Below are positions 2,934 through 24,799 of a stretch of DNA of 64,000 bases, piece after piece. This DNA comes from a bacterium (GTDB lineage Bacteria > Patescibacteriota > Minisyncoccia > Phycocordibacterales > SBAW01): contig JAKBZO010000001.1 in NCBI GenBank assembly GCA_021839985.1, forward strand, positions 676 through 64,675, in the 5' to 3' direction. Position 1 is the first letter of the stretch. Every line of letters starts with the position of its first letter. The notes beneath the pieces were generated by a model. The model was not told the DNA's origin. It did no database searches and saw only the letters and a program-made list of their open reading frames with translations. Made by a program: the position numbers and the translations under genes.

Positions 2934-5900
2934 TGGGTGAGGATGAATCGAACGGGCATATTGAGTGATGGATGGATGGAGAGGTCTGCGGCGCGCATGA
3001 TCTCAAGCGCGCCAAGACCGGTCTGTGCGATGAGGTCATGCTTGTGCGACTCGAAGAACGCTTCCCATTCTTCGTCCACATCGACGCGCAGTGTCGGCCG
3101 GTCATTCACTAAGAGGCCTTCCTTTTTGCGCAGATCTTGGATCATCCGCGCGACGTCGCGCACCAGACCTTCTTCGCGCAGCTCATCCGTGATCGCGATG
3201 TCGAGCCACACGTCCTCTTCCATGTCAGTGTCGGTCTCGATGACCTTCACGTTCACTTCATCGGCGATGATGGCGCGCAGCACTTGATCATCCGGCAGTT
3301 CGCGCACTTTAAGAAGCGCGAGCGGCTGGCGCACCTTTATGCCGGAGGCGTCGCGGCGCTCAAGCGCGCGCGATGCGACGGTACGAATGATCGCCATGTC
3401 CGCGAGGATCTTTTCATCGACCGCGATATTCTCCGGCCAGTTCTCCAAGTGGACGCTCTCCTTTTCTCCACCCGCGCCCCGGTACACGCTCTCTGCAATG
3501 AACGGCATGAGCGGCGCCACGAGTTTTGCGAGCGCGAGCAAGACCTCGCGCTGTGTGGCAAGAGCAAATTGTTTGTCAGTAGCGTCCGCGCCCGTTCGCA
3601 CGCGATCGCGTGAGCGGCGCACATACCAGGTCGAATAATCTTCGATGAACGGGCGTAGTGCTCGCACGGAGCGCGGCATGTCGTAGGACTCCATCGCGTC
3701 GGTCATCTCGCGCACGAGCTCTCCCAAGCGCGAACGGACCCAATGATCAAGCGGATGCGGACTGTTCTCGCTTTCGGTCGCTCCGTCGTATTCCTCTTTA
3801 TAAAGCTCGAAGAATTTGTATGAGTTCCATAAAATGCCGATGACGCGGTTGTGCACCTCGCGCACGTCTTCATCGCGAAACGCGAAGTCCTCCGCCTGCA
3901 TCACCACGCTCCCCATCATATAGAGGCGCAGCGCGTCGGCGCCGTACTTATCGAGCAGCGCGAGCGGATCAGTGTAGTTGCCCTTGCTCTTGCTCATCTT
4001 GGAGCCGTCGGCGGCAAGCACGTTGCCGGTCACAACCGCGGCGCGGAACGACAGGCGATCAAAGAGCGCGACCGCCATCGCATGCATATAGTAAAACCAT
4101 GCGCGCGTCTGCCCGACATACTCGGCCACAAAATCGCCCGGCGCGCGCTTCTCGAATGCTTCGGCGTTCTCGAACGGATAGTGATATTCGGCGAACGGCA
4201 TGACGCCCGACTCCGCCCAACAGTCGATGACTTCCGGTATGCGGGTGTACTCTGCGCCATCGTCTCCGAGGAGCGTGATCGAATCGATATAGGGACGATG
4301 CAGGTCGAGATCGAATTTCGCGTTGAGCGGCAGCGGCTTGAACGGAAGTTCCATCACCTCGCCCGGCGCTGCCGCGAGATTCACTTCGCTCAGGAGATCG
4401 TCGCCGCGCGTGCCATCGAGCACTTCAACGAGCGACTTGAAGCCGACCGCGTGCGACACCATGACCACCGTCTTGTCCGCATACGTCTCCTCGTAGCCGT
4501 AGATCGCTTTGCCGAAACGGATCTTCGCTTCTTCAAAACTTTCGCCGTGATCGGGATGTACGGTGTACCAGTCGGGTCGTGCCAGCGCCTGTATCCACTC
4601 CGATTTCGGTCGGCCGTCATATTCGCCGAAGTTGAATTCTGCGAGCCGCTCATCGACGACGATCGAAGATCCATCAAGACCAAGCTCGCGCGCCATGATC
4701 GTGGCGGTCTCGCGCGCGCGGCGCACCGGCGAGGTCAGAAGCACCAGCGATTTCTCAGGCGTCTGTGCCAAGCTCGCGCGGATGGTGTGCGCCGCGCGCG
4801 CGGCCTGCTCCCGGCCCTTCTGCGTCAGCGGGTAGACGCTCTCTGGGTCGGCGGTGTAAATGCCCTTGCTCATATATTCCGACTCGCCGTGGCGCACGAT
4901 GAAGTATCGATTGCCCGCGGTCTTCGCGCGCTGCTTGAGCTCCTCCAAAGAGCCGACCACCATGTACCGGCCATCTTGTGCTTTCCAGATCGGCAGGGGC
5001 GACGCCCAGAAACGATTGCGCGAAATGGTCCAGTCGGGCGCATTGTCGACGATGTGTTTGAAACGACCATGCTTAAGATGCTCCGGCACCCACGTTATCT
5101 TTTCATTCTCTTCAAGAAGACGCGTCTTGATCTTCTGAATATTGATGAACCACGACGAGACCGCGTTGTAGACGAGCGCCGTCGAACAACGATAGCAGTG
5201 CGGATACGAGTGCGTGTGCTCCGCTTTCGCAAAAAGCAGACCGCGCTTCTCAAGATCTTCGATGATACGCTTGCCGCCCTTTTTGTAATACATGCCGACG
5301 ATGAACTCCGGCGCCATCGAGTTGTAGGAGCCGCTCGCGTCGAGCAGCTGGATCATCGGCAATCCTTCGCGCGCGCCGAGCGCGAAGTCGTCTTCGCCGT
5401 ACATGGGGGCAATGTGCACGATGCCGGTGCCGTCTTCGGTCGTGACGAAGTCGCCGGCATACACGCGATGCGCCACGCCCGACTTCTCCTCGCCTGCGAA
5501 TTCGTAGAGCGGTTCATATTCGAGACCGACCAAGTCTTTGCCCGATCGTTCCCAATCGAGCACATAGAGTATCTGCTTTTGTGCGAAAAAGTTATTCGTG
5601 TCCTGCGAAAGAATATAAAGTTCAGGGCTGTCTGGTTTTTTAGCGAGTTGGTATTTGATATTTTCACCCACCGCCAGCGCCATGTTTCCCGGCAGCGTCC
5701 ACGGCGTGGTAGTCCACGCGAGCAAATACACATCACCCGAAAGTCCGAGAGCGTTCGGGTCTTTGACCTTGAACTTCACCGTCACCGCCGTATCCGTCAC
5801 ATCCTTATAGGTGTTATCCATCGCGATCTCCGCTTTTGCCAGCGGCGTCTCGCAGTGCGGGCAGTACATGAGCACCTTGCGGCCTTCGTAGAGGAGCTCC

Positions 5901-6418
5901 TTCTCATGCAAGCGCTTGAGCGACCACCATACGCTCTCGATGTACGAGTTGTCCATCGTCTTGTACGAATGTTTGAAGTCGACCCATCGTCCGATGCGCT
6001 CGACATATTTCTCCCACTCGCGCTCGAATTCAAGCACGCTGGAGCGCGCCGCTTCGTTGAACGCCGCGATACCTACCTGCTCGATATCTTTTTTTGTCTT
6101 AAGACCGAGCCGTTTCTCAATGAGGCTCTCGATCGGAAGACCGTGGCAATCCCACCCCCACCGGCGGCGCACGCTATACCCGCGCATCGTCTTGTAGCGC
6201 GGCACGACATCCTTCACGATCGACGAGAGCAGCGAACCATAGTGCGGAAGGCCGGTCGCAAATGGCGGGCCATCATAAAATATGAACTCGCCATGTGGCG
6301 CATCTTTCCCTACCGACTTTTCAAAAATTTCGCGCTCTTTCCAAAAAGCGAGCACGCCCTCCTCGCGTTGCGCTATCTCCGTCTTTTCTTGCGTCTTCGC
6401 TTTCTGTTCCTCAGCCAT
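2930..6418 (-). CDS. ileS: Isoleucyl-tRNA synthetase of the type-2 (eukaryote/archaeal-like) class, carrying an inserted histidine-phosphatase domain
   Basis: The HIGH-region is FYDGPPFATGLPHYGS, followed by the CP1 editing domain, the WTISRNRFWASPLPIW motif, DLHRPYID and GSKMSKSKGN (KMSKS). Between the PIW and HRPY motifs sits an extra ~190 aa with a RHGESE...SHAVG histidine-phosphatase signature. Confidence 0.85.
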   Translation of the reverse strand: MAEEQKAKTQEKTEIAQREEGVLAFWKEREIFEKSVGKDAPHGEFIFYDGPPFATGLPHYGSLLSSIVKDVVPRYKTMRGYSVRRRWGWDCHGLPIESLIEKRLGLKTKKDIEQVGIAAFNEAARSSVLEFEREWEKYVERIGRWVDFKHSYKTMDNSYIESVWWSLKRLHEKELLYEGRKVLMYCPHCETPLAKAEIAMDNTYKDVTDTAVTVKFKVKDPNALGLSGDVYLLAWTTTPWTLPGNMALAVGENIKYQLAKKPDSPELYILSQDTNNFFAQKQILYVLDWERSGKDLVGLEYEPLYEFAGEEKSGVAHRVYAGDFVTTEDGTGIVHIAPMYGEDDFALGAREGLPMIQLLDASGSYNSMAPEFIVGMYYKKGGKRIIEDLEKRGLLFAKAEHTHSYPHCYRCSTALVYNAVSSWFINIQKIKTRLLEENEKITWVPEHLKHGRFKHIVDNAPDWTISRNRFWASPLPIWKAQDGRYMVVGSLEELKQRAKTAGNRYFIVRHGESEYMSKGIYTADPESVYPLTQKGREQAARAAHTIRASLAQTPEKSLVLLTSPVRRARETATIMARELGLDGSSIVVDERLAEFNFGEYDGRPKSEWIQALARPDWYTVHPDHGESFEEAKIRFGKAIYGYEETYADKTVVMVSHAVGFKSLVEVLDGTRGDDLLSEVNLAAAPGEVMELPFKPLPLNAKFDLDLHRPYIDSITLLGDDGAEYTRIPEVIDCWAESGVMPFAEYHYPFENAEAFEKRAPGDFVAEYVGQTRAWFYYMHAMAVALFDRLSFRAAVVTGNVLAADGSKMSKSKGNYTDPLALLDKYGADALRLYMMGSVVMQAEDFAFRDEDVREVHNRVIGILWNSYKFFELYKEEYDGATESENSPHPLDHWVRSRLGELVREMTDAMESYDMPRSVRALRPFIEDYSTWYVRRSRDRVRTGADATDKQFALATQREVLLALAKLVAPLMPFIAESVYRGAGGEKESVHLENWPENIAVDEKILADMAIIRTVASRALERRDASGIKVRQPLALLKVRELPDDQVLRAIIADEVNVKVIETDTDMEEDVWLDIAITDELREEGLVRDVARMIQDLRKKEGLLVNDRPTLRVDVDEEWEAFFESHKHDLIAQTGLGALEIMRAADLSIHPSLNMPVRFILTQ
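4350..4900 (-). other. Histidine-phosphatase (PGAM-like) domain inserted in frame within the ileS catalytic core
   Basis: The codons for RHGESEYM lie at 4861-4884 on the minus strand. The second catalytic His sits in VVMVSHAVGF. In Thermus-type IleRS the same motif boundaries are separated by only about 40 aa. Confidence 0.55.
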
Positions 6419-6446
6419 ACATAAGAATATATAGGTATATCACCCA

Positions 6447-10802: not shown

Positions 10803-12068
10803 TTAAATGAACGTCTCGGGAACCGGAAATTTGTTGCACAAAGTTTTTATCTCGACCCTGATCGCGGCGAGTTTCGCCGGCTCGCTGCGGCCTTGCAGCG
10901 CAGCGATCATGAGCTCTGCAACGCGCGCACATTCGGCCTCCTTGAAACCGCGAGTGGTGATCGCCGGCGTTCCGAAGCGGATGCCGGATGGGTCCATCGG
11001 CTTGCGTGGGTCATCGGCGATCATATTCTTATTGAGCGTGATACCAACGGAGTCGAGCACGGTCTCTGCTTCCTGCCCCGAGACGCCGAGCGAGCCCCAC
11101 ACGTCAGCAAGGAGAAGATGATTGTCGGTGCCGCCACCGATGAGCCGCACGCCCGCATCTTTGAATACCGCCTCCATCGCTTTCGCGTTCTTGATGATCT
11201 GCACCGCGTACGTTTTGAATGACGGGTTGAGCGCTTCACCGAAAGCGACCGCCTTCGCCGCGATGTTGTTCATGTGCGGGCCGCCTTGAAGGCCGGGGAA
11301 TACCGTCTTGTCGATCTTCTTCGCGATCTCTTCCGACTCGCACACGAGGATCATGCCGCCGCGCGGTCCGCGCAGTGTTTTGTGCGTCGTTGTGGTCATG
11401 ATGTCGAAACCGTAGTCGAACGGATTTTTTGCCGCACCTCCGGCGATGAGCCCGGCGATATGCGCGATGTCCATCACCGCAAGCGCGCCAACATCGCGCG
11501 CGATCGACACGAATTTCGCGTAATCGAGTTCGCGCGGATACGCCGAGAAGCCGGCAAGGATGATCTTCGGCTTCGTCTCGCGCGCGACGCGCAGCATGTC
11601 GTCGTAATCGATCTCGCCCGTCTCGACGTCCTTCATCTTGTAGCGCACGAAGTTGAAGATCTTGGTGATGTAGGTGACCGGGTGTCCGTGCGTGAGGTGA
11701 CCGCCATGGCTGAGATCCATACCGAGCACGGTGTCGCCCGGCTCAAGGAGAGCGAAGTACATCGCGATGTTGGCATTGGCGCCGCCGAGCGGCTGCACGT
11801 TGGCGAATTTCGCGCCGAAGAGTTTTTTGGCGCGCTCGATAGCGACGCTCTCCACGACATCGGTGAACTGCTGTCCGCCGTAGTAGCGCTTGCCCGGATA
11901 TCCTTCCGAATATTTATTGGTGAGGATCGAACCGTTCGCTTCTCGCACCGCGCGCGACACGTAGTTCTCCGACGGAATGAGCTCAAGCCCCTCCGCCTCT
12001 CTCCCCTCCTCGCCCATGAGCGCGCTGTATATTTCTTCGTCCTGCTGCTGAATAAAAGGGTAGTGCAT
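10803..12068 (-). CDS. glyA: Serine hydroxymethyltransferase
   Basis: 421 aa with LIPSENYVSRAV, YSEGYPGKRYYGG and the PLP-lysine region TTTTHKTLRGPRGG. It is full length. Confidence 0.9.
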   Translation of the reverse strand: MHYPFIQQQDEEIYSALMGEEGREAEGLELIPSENYVSRAVREANGSILTNKYSEGYPGKRYYGGQQFTDVVESVAIERAKKLFGAKFANVQPLGGANANIAMYFALLEPGDTVLGMDLSHGGHLTHGHPVTYITKIFNFVRYKMKDVETGEIDYDDMLRVARETKPKIILAGFSAYPRELDYAKFVSIARDVGALAVMDIAHIAGLIAGGAAKNPFDYGFDIMTTTTHKTLRGPRGGMILVCESEEIAKKIDKTVFPGLQGGPHMNNIAAKAVAFGEALNPSFKTYAVQIIKNAKAMEAVFKDAGVRLIGGGTDNHLLLADVWGSLGVSGQEAETVLDSVGITLNKNMIADDPRKPMDPSGIRFGTPAITTRGFKEAECARVAELMIAALQGRSEPAKLAAIRVEIKTLCNKFPVPETFI

Positions 12069-12123: not shown

Positions 12124-12414
12124 TCATGGACCCTTTTGTTCGACCCTCAACCACAACTTTTCCGCATTGCCATGCCGCATGAGCCCCAGATACGACCGCA
12201 CCACCGCGCCGTCCTCTTCACTCCCCGTAATGTTGCGAAACATGCGCCGCTTCGCCACGGTTCGCAACACACGATGGTCGGGGAAATGCACCCAGCCGAG
12301 GAAGTCGATGCCTGCTGCAACTGTACCAATCGACACCTTGTGTGGATGCAGCGTGAGCCGCAGTTCATCCCATAGAAAATCAGGCTTAAAGAAAAAACCG
12401 CCGCGTGCAAGCAC
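12124..12414 (-). pseudogene. Reverse-transcriptase C-terminal fragment (motif 6/7 plus thumb) with no catalytic N-terminus; a probable DGR-type or group-II-type RT remnant
   Basis: ...LRLTLHPHKVSIGTVAAGIDFLGWVHFPDHRVLRTVAKRRMFRN matches the RT hPxKT...G.DFLG motif and the basic thumb. The frame is closed by a TGA 27 nt upstream, and no YxDD region is present. Confidence 0.35.
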
Positions 12415-12468
12415 GCGGCGAAAAGAAGAGCCCGAGTGTCAAAGTGACACAGGGCAATAGCCCAGGTC

Positions 12469-13083
12469 CTAAGCGGCCGAGATCTGTTGCGCGCCCAGGA
12501 AACCCCAACGGCCGTCCCAGCCGCCCCCCCACCTGTAGAGGCAGAGGTCGCGCTCCGAGCCGTCACCGTCGAGACAGACCACGAACCGGCCGCCGCGCAC
12601 CCGAGCGAAGGAACCGAGCAGAGCAATCGGACGCTTGAGTTGTTCCCTCGGGTACTTGCGAGCGAAGGCGATCCCCGCTTCATGTCGAGCGGGCGGGAAT
12701 CCGTCAGCAATCATCATGTCGCGAACGGCTTCAGCGGATATGGATTTTTTCGGCTCACATAATTTGAAGTGATACGAGCCGACCGCCTTCGGGTTGATCG
12801 GGAAGTTCGAGGCGATGTCCGGATTCACCCGGTTGAATCTAGCACTTGCGATCAATTGCTCGATCGTGACGCCGCTTTCGAGCACCGCCTGAAATTCCTG
12901 CAACGAGAGGCCGAGGAACTTCTGCAGATCGTCGAGCGTTGGCGCGATGCCGTTCTTGACGCTCCGTGCGAGTGCAGAGACGAGAGGGTGCAACGTTTCG
13001 ATTTCGCTGGTCATCAGATCTTGCTCAGTGATGATTTTCAGCAAGTGTGCTGCCTGCGGCAGCGTTCCGAGATCTTTACTCAT
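12469..13083 (-). CDS. Hypothetical protein with an alpha-helical N-domain and a C-type-lectin/FGE-sulfatase-like C-terminal domain; a candidate DGR variable protein
   Basis: The C-terminus is ...LGSFARVRGGRFVVCLDGDGSERDLCLYRWGGGWDGRWGFLGAQQ*. This resembles the RVLRGGSW...IGFR ends of DGR target proteins. It is in the same frame as, and 54 nt upstream of, the RT fragment. Confidence 0.5.
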   Translation of the reverse strand: MSKDLGTLPQAAHLLKIITEQDLMTSEIETLHPLVSALARSVKNGIAPTLDDLQKFLGLSLQEFQAVLESGVTIEQLIASARFNRVNPDIASNFPINPKAVGSYHFKLCEPKKSISAEAVRDMMIADGFPPARHEAGIAFARKYPREQLKRPIALLGSFARVRGGRFVVCLDGDGSERDLCLYRWGGGWDGRWGFLGAQQISAA

Positions 13084-13228
13084 GGAATGTCTCCATCAAG
13101 CACTACCCCTTGCGGGTAGCATTGCTAGAGGGCAACAGGATTGTCGCCATAGCTCGAAAGTGCTGACTTTCCAGCCGCTTCGAGCTATGGCGAACATTGA
13201 TCTCAAAGAGCGGTTTGCAACTTTCTAC

Positions 13229-13256
13229 ATAATACACGAACTTGTACTTCTGTCAA
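13229..13256 (-). promoter_or_regulatory. Near-consensus sigma70 promoter (TTGACA, 16-nt spacer, TATTAT) directing transcription into the 12469-13083 gene
   Basis: The minus strand reads ttgaca-gaagtacaagttcgtg-tattat. It is followed by a ~145-nt 5'UTR holding a 14-bp-stem hairpin (13136-13190). Confidence 0.4.
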
Positions 13257-13283
13257 GACCCCCGCAATGCTCCGACACGAATG

Positions 13284-14246
13284 TTATCCGTGTATCTTTT
13301 TATTGTATCCGCCGGCGACCGTGAGTTCCGCTTTGATGGTCGCGTGCGGATCATAATCATTCAACCGCACGAACTCCGGTTTGAAAGTATCGAGTGAATC
13401 GAGCGACTCCGTGAACGAGATCGTCGGGAACGGCCTTGGTTCACGCGCAAGCTGCTCAAGCGCCTGCTCTTTGTGATTCTCATAGATATGCACGTCGCCG
13501 AACGTGTGCACGAACTCGCCAGGGCTCCGTCCCAAGATCTTGGCGAGCACGATCGTGAGCAGCGCATAGCTTGCGATATTGAACGGCACGCCAAGGAAAA
13601 TGTCGGCGCTGCGCTGGTAGAGCTGGAGGCATACGCGGCCGTGCTTGATGTTGACCTGGTAGAGGTTGTGGCAGATCGGGAATCGCGCCGCTTTGCCCGG
13701 CGCCGCCATGGCATAGAGATATTCCGGATTCCACGAGCTCACGAGGGTGTTGTGAGCGTCCTTGTCATGCCGCAATTCGTCGACCACCCAGCCGAGCTGA
13801 TCGACCTCTCGCCCATCGTGCGCCTGCCACCTGCGCCACATTTCGCCATAGATATGCGGCAGCTCGCCATGAGCCTCTGCAAAGTCATCGTCGGCTTTTA
13901 TGCGCTCGACAAATTCTTCTTTGGTGAGCTCCGGCACCTCGCCGCGTTCCATCTTCTCTTTATAGATCTTGTAGGGATAGTCGTCCCAAATGTGCACTTC
14001 CTGATCGACGAGATACTTGATGTTGCTCTGGCCGGAGAGGAACCAGTAGAGCTCGTGCAAGACGCCCTTCCAGTAGACGCGCTTGGTGGTGAGAAGCGGA
14101 AATCCTTGCGAGAGGTCGAAACGGATCTGACGGCCGAAGAGGCTGTACGTCTTCACACCCGTGCCTGCGTCCACCTGCTCCTCCCCGCTCTCGAGGATCT
14201 CGCGCATAAGATCAAGGTATTGGTACTCAGGATGTCGCTTCTCCAT
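13284..14246 (-). CDS. thyA: Thymidylate synthase (ThyA type, long form)
   Basis: Contains PLLTTKRV, ...CHNLYQVNIK..., LQLYQRSADIFLGVPFNIASYALLT and the catalytic Cys region. Confidence 0.9.
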   Translation of the reverse strand: MEKRHPEYQYLDLMREILESGEEQVDAGTGVKTYSLFGRQIRFDLSQGFPLLTTKRVYWKGVLHELYWFLSGQSNIKYLVDQEVHIWDDYPYKIYKEKMERGEVPELTKEEFVERIKADDDFAEAHGELPHIYGEMWRRWQAHDGREVDQLGWVVDELRHDKDAHNTLVSSWNPEYLYAMAAPGKAARFPICHNLYQVNIKHGRVCLQLYQRSADIFLGVPFNIASYALLTIVLAKILGRSPGEFVHTFGDVHIYENHKEQALEQLAREPRPFPTISFTESLDSLDTFKPEFVRLNDYDPHATIKAELTVAGGYNKKIHG

Positions 14247-15811: not shown

Positions 15812-16312
15812 ATGATCCACATCATCGCCGCCATCGGAAAGAACCGCGAACTCGGCAAAGATAATGCGCTGCTGTGGCAGATCCCGGAGGACCTCCGGCA
15901 CTTCAAAGAGCTCACGCTTGGACATCCGGTCATCATGGGGCGCAAGACATTCGATTCGATCGTTGCTGCACTCGGAGGACCCTTGCCCAGGCGCACCAGT
16001 ATTGTTGTCACGCACACCCACAGAGGGGAACCCTCTGGGACAGAGGGTTCCCCTCTGTGGGTGTGCTCGTTTGAAGACGCGTTAGCGCGAGCACAAAAAA
16101 TTGACCAGGATGTCTTTGTGATCGGTGGGGCGCAGATATACGAACAAGCGCTGCCACACGCTGACGTGCTTCACCTCACACTCATCGATGACTCGCGCGG
16201 TGCTGATTCATTCTTCCCGCCGTATGATCAGCTTTTCAAAGAAGTGGGCGTAAGCGAGTGGCATGAGCATGGCGACACTCGTTACCGCTTCGCGGAATAT
16301 AAAAGGCTTTAG
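15812..16312 (+). CDS. folA: Dihydrofolate reductase
   Basis: IIAAIGKNRELGKDNALLWQIPEDLRHFKELTLGHPVIMGRKTFDSI...VIGGAQIYEQALP matches DHFR throughout. A loop carries an in-frame palindromic insertion. Confidence 0.85.
   Translation: MIHIIAAIGKNRELGKDNALLWQIPEDLRHFKELTLGHPVIMGRKTFDSIVAALGGPLPRRTSIVVTHTHRGEPSGTEGSPLWVCSFEDALARAQKIDQDVFVIGGAQIYEQALPHADVLHLTLIDDSRGADSFFPPYDQLFKEVGVSEWHEHGDTRYRFAEYKRL
16017..16065. repeat. Palindromic MITE-like element cacacccacagaggggaaccctctg-gga-cagagggttcccctctgtgggtgtg inserted in frame in the folA loop (encodes HRGEPSGTEGSPLWV)
   Basis: 25-nt inverted arms with a 3-5-nt centre. The related palindrome ccccagagggttcccctctgggg recurs at 23936-23958. Confidence 0.6.
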
Positions 16313-23935: not shown

Positions 23936-23958
23936 ACCCCAGAGGGTTCCCCTCTGGG
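23936..23958. repeat. Palindrome ccccagagggttcccctctgggg, related to the folA insertion
   Basis: It shares the core agagggttcccctctg with 16017-16065. It sits just upstream of rplS. Confidence 0.55.
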
Positions 23959-24054
23959 GGCTACTATAACAAAAGGGTCCTTTTCCACTCCGCAAAAATT
24001 CTTGCAAAGTTTCAAAGGACCCAAGGTTCAAAATCGAACCAAAGTGTTGAAGGA

Positions 24055-24672
24055 TCAGCGAGAAACCACCTGGTCGTCGGCATCCCACCTGTCCGGGAGC
24101 GTCACCGAGTCGGCTTCGACGTACCAGCCGCTGTCGTCGGCGCCCCAGTACGCGTGCACGGCCCAGACGGTTCCCTTTGCATCGGCGATGTAGAAGATGA
24201 ACCACTTGGAGTGGTAGGCGGTCTTCAAGAATTCGAAGACATGCGCGAAGTACACGCGGGCTCTTTTCACCTTCGGGAAGTCCTTGTCGCCGAGCGCCAC
24301 GAGGATGTTCTCGTCCGACGATGAGTTAAGCAGTTTGCGCTGCTTCACTGTCATGGCGGGGACATTCTCTTCGATGAGGTCGCCGAAGTTTGCCATAAGG
24401 TTTTCGCCGAGGTTCCAGATCGGCAGCTCGCCGTTCACGTCCACCTTGAGCTTGTCGCGAGCAACGAAGCGTTTGACGGACGAGAATCTGATCGGCTCGC
24501 CTACTTCTTCGAGGAGACCCGCGAGGATCTTCTTGCTCGCCACCGACTCGACTTTCAATGTTTTCTCCCCACGCAAAATCGCGCGGGCTCCTTCTGCGCC
24601 GCCAACCATCTTGATGATGGCGTTAGTTTCGCCGCCCGTAAGGTCGGCCATTGCGAAACGATCATGAGACAT
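24055..24672 (-). CDS. Hypothetical protein
   Basis: A 205-aa ORF with no recognised motifs. Confidence 0.45.
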   Translation of the reverse strand: MSHDRFAMADLTGGETNAIIKMVGGAEGARAILRGEKTLKVESVASKKILAGLLEEVGEPIRFSSVKRFVARDKLKVDVNGELPIWNLGENLMANFGDLIEENVPAMTVKQRKLLNSSSDENILVALGDKDFPKVKRARVYFAHVFEFLKTAYHSKWFIFYIADAKGTVWAVHAYWGADDSGWYVEADSVTLPDRWDADDQVVSR

Positions 24673-24741
24673 AGTGCTCTCCTTTGGGCTTAGTTGCCCT
24701 TCAGATGTTTCCTCTCACCCGAGGCAGGCGCTATCGCGTGT

Positions 24742-24799
24742 CATTCGCCACAGCAGAGAATGGCCTAATGAATAAGCCGTTTTCTGCTGTGGCGAATGC
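24742..24799. promoter_or_regulatory. 15-bp perfect inverted repeat (cattcgccacagcag ... ctgctgtggcgaatg) with a 27-nt loop, between the RluA-family gene and the 24055-24672 gene
   Basis: A perfect inverted repeat with no U-tract after it; an operator-like or RNA stem-loop. Confidence 0.3.

Follow-up and report, generated by a model that had tools for sequence, protein, structure and literature searches.

The interval between thyA and glyA in the 64-kb stretch of DNA analysed here (the window) very probably holds a decayed diversity-generating retroelement (DGR) of the Patescibacteria type, in which the gene for a lectin-fold target protein has been kept and the reverse transcriptase (RT) has been reduced to a stump. 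A preliminary description of the same DNA had proposed a target gene with an RT remnant, and our analysis bears this out. Judging from its relatives, the window probably derives from a CPR/Patescibacteria organism. Both ends of the locus are homologous to intact DGRs, the target protein has a C-type-lectin fold, its C-terminal part is in register with the variable regions (VRs) of its relatives and carries a footprint of mutagenesis, and the locus is base-identical in six assemblies. The components of a functional DGR, namely a catalytic RT, a template repeat (TR) and avd, are absent from the window, and there is no sign of ongoing hypervariation of the VR among the six assemblies. The native promoter and leader presumably still drive expression of the target, as a fixed binding protein that no longer diversifies.

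Layout of the locus and the reverse-transcriptase remnant

All features of interest lie on the minus strand (Table 1), where a promoter-like site, a box, a large and a small hairpin and a GGAG motif are followed in this order by a 204-aa open reading frame (ORF), a terminator-like hairpin and a 96-aa ORF. Both ORFs lie where the preliminary description had placed them, and the peptides quoted there are correct; their strand had been left unstated. The near-consensus promoter that it had reported is likewise present, with a TG two bases upstream of the -10 element (tgTATTAT), and its -35 element aligns with that of L092, the closest intact relative obtained (related loci are cited here by L numbers). 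The box downstream of it is the local form of a conserved 'GTTCTTTGAtA ... CTTGCGA' box. The small hairpin is near-identical in L092 and was otherwise seen only in copies of the window locus. Terminator-like hairpins with T-runs are the rule in intact relatives, where they lie 55-85 nt past the VR (L001, L006, L010, L011, L053 and others), and the one in L006 has the same CTTG loop as that in the window.

Table 1. Features of the DGR-derived locus and of the second target gene in the window
Feature	Position	Strand	Description
thyA	13284-14246	minus	flanks DGR-derived locus
Promoter-like site of target gene	13229..13256	minus	TTGACA, 16-nt spacer, TATTAT; 11/12 consensus matches
Leader box CGCTCTTTGAGATCAATG	13195..13212	minus	between promoter and hairpin; from upstream sequences of 30 related loci and L092 alignment
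Leader hairpin UUCGCCAUAGC...GCUAUGGCGAC	13143..13194	minus	~21 base pairs, predicted 5'UTR of target gene
Second small hairpin GCUACCCGCAAGGGGUAGUGC	13100..13120	minus	predicted fold; just upstream of GGAG
GGAG ribosome-binding site of target gene	13091-13094	minus	
Target (variable-protein) gene, 204 aa	12469..13083	minus	homology to bona fide DGR targets
Former variable region (VR), residues 157-200	12484..12615	minus	codon-threaded alignment to VR/TR pairs of L006, L053, L001
Intrinsic-terminator-like hairpin of target gene	12388..12421	minus	CGCCGCGUG-CUUG-CACGCGGCG, then U-run
96-aa ORF	12124..12414	minus	putative GTG start
RT remnant inside 96-aa ORF	12154..12378	minus	end of palm + thumb; reference RT residues ~222-295
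glyA/SHMT	10803-12068	minus	flanks DGR-derived locus
Second leader hairpin copy	24744..24796	minus	covariance model 59.4 bits, E = 2e-11
Second RT-less DGR-type target gene, 205 aa (...WAVHAYWGADDSGWYVEADSVTLPDRWDADDQVVSR)	24055..24672	minus	VR equivalent ~24057-24170

The 96-aa ORF had been described as a C-terminal RT fragment that had lost its finger and palm regions (YxDD) by deletion. It matches residues 230-286 of PDB 8ub7_A, 'Reverse transcriptase' (E = 0.012), and 88 other database proteins (1e-30 to 4e-10); many of the longer relatives bear PF00078 together with LGNLTSQ and YADDF, motifs that are typical of DGR reverse transcriptases. We take 8ub7 (chain of 328 aa, nine entries) to be the Bordetella bRT. 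Both the chain size and the number of entries fit the cryo-EM series of bRT-Avd-RNA in bioRxiv 10.1101/2023.10.23.563531. By tblastn, RT homology is limited to the remnant listed in Table 1, which comprises residues ~12-87 of the ORF and has 65% identity to residues 222-295 of the reference RT. Compared with residues 246-321 of the intact L092 RT, the remnant is 74% identical in both amino acids and DNA, and its identity to the RTs of the Patescibacteria DGR group ranges from 58 to 74%. The truncation is thus as had been supposed and most of the ORF is RT-derived; its first 11 codons (MLARGGFFFKP), in turn, are encoded by the terminator stem and T-run.

A comparison of the ORF with PF00078 (RVT_1), which the preliminary description had suggested, found nothing: no Pfam or NCBIfam family matches it. 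This is because the RVT_1 model, which spans residues 74-275 of the L092 RT, ends at residue 275, within the range that corresponds to the remnant. That the ORF belongs to the RT superfamily is therefore concluded from its homology to full-length RTs. Since the 204-aa ORF has no Pfam or NCBIfam match either, one might think of a group II intron or retron RT fragment that lies beside an unrelated small protein, or of an assembly chimera. An origin of this kind is hardly credible. Among full-length proteins, the nearest relatives are RTs of DGRs, with bAvd and adenine-biased TR/VR pairs beside them, and their match to 8ub7_A is better by about 30 orders of magnitude than that of intron or retron RTs (1.9e-47 for the intact L092 RT, as against ~1e-17 for retron-type and group II intron RTs). 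The same junction is moreover present in six independent assemblies (NCBI, ENA, Logan).

The 96-aa ORF runs uninterrupted as far as the native stop codon of the RT, and all the nearly invariant residues of the family are kept in it. It also shares the frame of the target gene, from which it is separated by 54 nt as had been noted, and a first database search returned only relatives of 64-168 aa. These observations would suit a functional small protein, such as an RT thumb that stands alone, or expression of the ORF by readthrough from the target. However, the target gene ends in TAG and an in-frame TGA follows nine codons on, before the 96-aa ORF, so that the shared frame is coincidental and without functional meaning; a readthrough fusion was rejected on this ground. 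The list of exclusively short relatives arose artificially, from word-based candidate retrieval and from fragments on short contigs. When one genome per species was scanned, more than 590 related RT loci were found, and tblastn with a full-length RT showed complete RTs (~297 aa, 58-67% identity) in about 70 of 80 retrieved loci, on account of which we rejected both a family of stand-alone thumb proteins and a systematically split RT. Other truncated copies have their breakpoints elsewhere (at reference residues 217, 199 and ~179-195, compared with 222 in the window). Finally, the putative GTG start falls within the stem of the terminator and is not preceded by any visible GGAGG-like ribosome-binding site. 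A function for the product is therefore very unlikely. The 96-aa ORF is probably not a real gene, and we regard it as a presumably non-functional stump behind the terminator.

RT codon 211 is TGA in L001, L003-5 and L045. A recoded or programmed stop at this codon was not accepted, since only 30 of the 87 sequences aligned have Trp at this position. Of the three loci, moreover, two are wrecks in other respects, and two had been retrieved because of their short ORFs. We treat it as a curiosity and not as a mechanism.

Intact relatives, the deletion and the former variable region

Intact relatives have a common layout, in which a promoter and leader hairpin precede a target of ~200 aa with a C-terminal VR, followed by a terminator hairpin, the TR, an opposite-strand avd and the RT. 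L001 is a textbook DGR: the last 128 nt of a 200-aa ORF are repeated 467 nt downstream at 83% identity, all mismatches in the core of the repeat fall at adenines of the downstream copy, and an opposite-strand bAvd gene and then the RT lie beyond it. Repeat pairs with at least 80% of their mismatches at adenines of one copy were found in 56 of 85 loci, with the VR at the 3' end of an ORF (median 215 aa), the TR ~450 nt downstream and the RT ~500 nt further on.

DNA homology between the window and the L092 DGR is confined to two segments, one covering the leader and the first ~60 codons of the target (13193-12907, 73%) and one covering the 3' end of the RT (12371-12154, 74%). From the target stop to the point where RT homology resumes, L092 has ~1.6 kb that includes the TR (2693-2814) and the 5' part of the RT and that has no counterpart in the window, where the matching interval is 90 nt long and consists mostly of terminator. 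In the intact L001 and in a P0003 contig, avd lies inside this interval; it was not called in L092. RT residues ~1-221 and with them the LGNLTSQ/YADDF catalytic palm are absent from the window locus. Searches of the 64-kb window by tblastn gave no second RT and no avd (L001 bAvd as query, best E = 3.1), and a search for the template repeat, which the preliminary description had proposed, gave no repeat of the VR region (12415-12700) beyond chance. The simplest history of the locus is a single deletion of ~1.5 kb that extended from just past the target terminator to about RT codon 221-245 and removed the TR, avd, the RT fingers and the catalytic palm.

Several other loci are wrecks as well, with the differing RT breakpoints given above. 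The TR is fused directly to RT motif 5 in L003-5, and microhomology at the deletion junction is plausible in L003, where the TR runs into motif 5 at ATGCTGAT. L002 retains a target and an RT stump, and L045 is a lone, frameshifted RT stump.

In the 204-aa target protein, residues 1-57 form a helical N-terminal part and residues ~60-204 a domain with a C-type-lectin fold. The preliminary description had called it a candidate variable protein of the C-type-lectin or formylglycine-enzyme (CLec/FGE) kind. The VR-bearing domain does adopt a C-type-lectin fold and the VR is in register; on the other hand, no FGE-sulfatase (PF03781) match was obtained, nor one to DUF1566 or any other Pfam or NCBIfam family, even at E <= 10. 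Blastp of the protein against bona fide DGR targets gave alignments that span both the core and the VR (L006 1e-22, L063 3e-14, L053 2e-13, L001 2e-10). A profile search for relatives found 84 close members, and the family as a whole is large, Pfam-less and unannotated, with 7047 clusters (50% identity) at E <= 1e-3.

When codons are threaded through the protein alignment, window residues 157-200 fall in register with the VRs of the relatives. The VR equivalent is thereby placed at 12484-12615, in place of the 12472-12600 for which the preliminary description had expected a near-repeat. It belongs to the motif class R-x-V-x-x-L...R-x-L-x-L...W...F, which may be one of the CPR classes that Wu et al. 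left ungrouped or named 'UVR'. Ten columns of the alignment are AAC or AAT in the TR of at least one relative, and the window codons in these columns are GGC, TTC, GAC, GAC, GAC, TGC, TAC, GGC, GAC and CGT. All ten are thus NNC or NNT, the signature expected from adenine mutagenesis of AAY codons. The nearest homologue of the protein, P0002, is 54% identical overall and 51% outside the VR. Within the VR, scaffold positions are 85% identical (22/26), the TR-adenine columns 33% and the core AAY columns 1/8 (Fisher p = 0.001 for scaffold positions against all 18 TR-adenine columns). This concentration of differences at TR-adenine columns indicates that diversification acted in the ancestry of the target gene. 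As judged from codon comparison, the VR therefore bears the footprint of past adenine mutagenesis.

The exact 204-aa protein occurs on 10 contigs, and its cluster at 90% identity has a single member sequence. Target and RT stump are base-identical in the six assemblies retrieved from NCBI, ENA and Logan, with no SNPs in the VR; three of the six do have SNPs in the neighbouring glyA. The hypervariability among strain variants for which the preliminary description had proposed to look was thus not seen, in a limited comparison that is biased by exact-match look-up and is supportive, not decisive. The locus looks frozen, and the VR is apparently fixed.

The leader hairpin and targets without a reverse transcriptase

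The large 5'UTR hairpin reported for the target gene folds with z = -5.3 and proved to be conserved and covarying. Its alignment with the hairpin of L092 shows compensatory changes, and it scores 68.9 bits (E = 1e-13) with a covariance model built from seven copies. A search of 651 kb with this model gave 32 sites, one per locus except for two in the window. At the 30 related loci, the next long ORF downstream of the hairpin begins after 3-85 nt and is VR-bearing wherever a VR was detected, and each of the two copies in the window precedes a target gene by ~60-70 nt. At 30 of the 32 sites, the model gives the higher score on the strand of the target gene. When 27 copies are aligned by MAFFT without regard to structure, 94.7% of cells form pairs, compared with 79.3% after shuffling and at most 49% with a slid partner; compensatory changes occur in 13 of the 21 pairs, and two are conserved G-U pairs. 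The degree of pairing, the compensatory changes and the conserved G-U pairs together favour an RNA hairpin over a DNA palindrome. On the basis of these alignments, the "5'UTR hairpin" is a predicted leader RNA that is conserved and covaries among CPR DGR targets. Most intact relatives have a TTGACA-17-TGTATAAT promoter and a GTTCTTTGA box upstream of it.

No Rfam family matches the leader hairpin. The only sub-threshold Rfam matches, to anti-hemB (23 bits, gathering threshold 49.5) and suhB, overlie the terminator hairpin and were taken as chance. The words "promoter" and "stem-loop" are absent from the main text of Wu et al. (PMC5758913), and Paul et al. 2017 lies outside this comparison. We put the chances at roughly even that the hairpin represents a new cis-regulatory RNA class that is specific to CPR DGR targets, functional and undescribed.

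The second copy of the hairpin, ~11.5 kb from the first and 96% identical to the hairpin of L046, precedes a 205-aa ORF that matches bona fide targets by blastp (L066 4e-27, L065 2e-22, L072 2e-21; range to 3e-15). The DNA of this ORF is homologous to the VRs of bona fide targets, of a class other than that of the 204-aa target, and no TR-like repeat, avd or RT was found near it. To survey such genes without selecting on the RT, a 22-base version of the hairpin was used in a metagenome scan that returned 76 loci, 27 of them with enough downstream sequence. A full-length RT is encoded in 10 of these 27, nine of which have a TR/VR pair, and 17 have no RT anywhere in the locus. In nearly all of the RT-less loci (15/17) an ORF shows homology to bona fide targets, with E values of 4e-19 or better in 13. 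Targets without an RT are thus frequent in CPR, and the state of the window locus is not unusual.

It is conceivable that the RT-less, hairpin-led genes form a dispersed family that is serviced in trans by CPR DGRs, with the leader as an undescribed control or marking element. We think this improbable, and consider the cis-regulatory class described above considerably more likely.

For the 204-aa target itself, the corresponding proposal is that it is a remote target, which an intact DGR at another place in the genome still diversifies in trans, with the RT stump being irrelevant. DGR components are able to work in trans, and targets that are not adjacent are known in other lineages (PMC5758913). 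The target keeps its promoter, leader and 3' hairpin, and genes of the same make-up are frequent, as the hairpin-selected metagenome loci and the second gene in the window illustrate. However, the locus clearly once had its own RT, and CPR DGRs have been reported with a single adjacent target, remote targets being confined to another lineage (PMC5758913). No similarity was detectable between the VR classes of the two orphan targets in the window, so that one TR could not serve both, and no TR was found within 64 kb. The lack of variation in the six assemblies and the single-membered 90% cluster likewise speak against current diversification. Continued service in trans is unlikely, and we favour a decayed DGR with a target that has become fixed.

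Significance and comparison with known systems

DGRs abound in CPR bacteria, and to find a broken one is no surprise. The locus nevertheless offers a clean, well-bounded case in which a DGR died by a single deletion while the variable protein was kept with a frozen binding surface and its expression signals. It bears on how often the "hypothetical" proteins of ~200 aa in CPR (~7000 clusters, no Pfam) are former or current DGR targets, and the conserved leader hairpin with its near-consensus promoter marks CPR DGR target genes. As most of the assessable hairpin-selected loci are RT-less, it may be asked whether surveys of CPR DGRs that start from the RT miss most targets. What interest remains attaches mainly to the conserved leader RNA and to the large number of targets without an RT.

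The DGR of Bordetella phage BPP-1 (Mtd, Avd, TR, bRT) is an element of the same kind with a VR in a C-type-lectin fold, and its adenine-specific differences between TR and VR are also seen in the relatives of the window locus. In contrast to the phage element, the window locus is chromosomal and non-functional, with a small target and no recognisable tail-fibre context; the intact CPR relatives also differ from BPP-1 in that their avd is inverted. No sequence similarity was detectable to the solved CLec variable proteins TvpA (2y3c), archaeal AvpA (PMC5006420) and Thermus TaqVP (PMC6328139), and the VR motif of the window target is of a different class. The locus belongs with the DGRs of Patescibacteria/CPR, described as 'DGR clade 2' by Roux et al. 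2021 (PMC8144416) and as the 'B3 architecture' by Wu et al. 2018 (PMC5758913), whose targets are reported to have no recognisable domains and to be probable new C-Lec variants (PMC8144416, PMC5758913). It resembles them in its Pfam-less target of ~200 aa, in the C-terminal position of the VR and in the order of promoter, leader hairpin, target and terminator, and differs in being without a TR, avd, RT residues ~1-221 and signs of current diversification. The locus is a decayed DGR of a known type and is ordinary for its group.

Leader hairpin and orphan target genes

Target genes of diversity-generating retroelements (DGRs) in CPR bacteria are preceded by a conserved promoter, a 'GTTCTTTGA' box and a covarying RNA hairpin of ~50 nt, which has no match in Rfam and is not mentioned in a DGR survey (PMC5758913). 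Thirty related loci carry this hairpin, and in the window a hairpin of the type that leads the first target also leads a second DGR-type gene, whose variable region (VR) is of another class. No template repeat (TR), accessory gene (avd) or reverse transcriptase (RT) was found near this second target in the window, and an rplS-like gene (ribosomal protein L19) lies directly downstream. The GC-rich palindrome downstream of the second target has a near-identical copy ~8 kb away, and the pair may be either a common terminator or a small repeated element.

Among 27 assessable metagenome loci chosen by the hairpin (from L093-L168), the RT was absent from 17, the hairpin being followed by an ORF of ~200 aa that was homologous to DGR targets in 15 of them. 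Three RT-less loci (L093, L142 and L156) kept an adenine-biased TR/VR pair, L156 together with avd.

Over its first ~60 residues, the window's first target shares 67% identity with the N-terminus of a target in an intact DGR (P0003 / L092), whereas the C-terminal lectin/VR domains belong to different classes. Such like N-termini joined to unlike C-termini indicate, at the sequence level, that VR domains are exchanged modularly behind a common leader and N-terminal helix bundle.

Features of the window and of related loci
Feature	Position	Strand	Remark
Second target with leader hairpin	24055-24796	minus	205 aa
Leader hairpins, window	13143-13194; 24744-24796		
Leader hairpins, related loci	e.g. 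L018:1702-1753; L092:1587-1638		
Target in an intact DGR (P0003 / L092)	L092:1698-2354		
Palindrome	23937-23959		CCCCAGAGGG-GAA-CCCTCTGGGG
Palindrome copy	16017-16061		
TR/RT junction region	L003:5854-6000		
42-nt direct repeats	L002:4975-5016; 6399-6440		
RT codon-211 TGA	L001:5998-6000; L003:~5977-5979; L045 ~3.97 kb, within 3920-4216		L004 and L005 as L003
Post-TR hairpin	e.g. L016, L017, L037, L064		CTCTCCC...GGGAGAG+TTTTGTTTTG
Post-TR hairpin	e.g. L007, L013, L060		ACCCCGC...GCGGGGT+yGAGTTTTG

Broken loci and a recurrent RT stop codon

In the related locus L003 the TR directly abuts RT motif 5 (...GRWN/ADDFVVFSRDKV, then a stop). Since this junction sits at a shared ATGCTGAT, its sequence suggests that a microhomology-mediated deletion removed avd and the N-terminal two thirds of the RT and spared the TR. 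In L002, direct repeats of 90% identity enclose a module consisting of a 184-aa target-like gene and an RT stump; these repeats could be cassette boundaries or the result of a duplication.

Three independent loci carry TGA at the identical RT codon, residue 211 of the full-length reference, where Trp or Tyr is usual. Apart from this codon the DGR of L001 appears intact, with a clean TR/VR pair. The shared TGA could be a coincident nonsense mutation; alternatively, it could reflect regulation through a leaky stop.

Hairpin 3' of the template repeat

In intact loci, a G/C-rich hairpin followed by a U-rich tail recurs 10-30 nt past the TR. Its possible roles in this clade are termination or structuring of the TR RNA, by analogy with the spacer region in the RNA of the Bordetella DGR.
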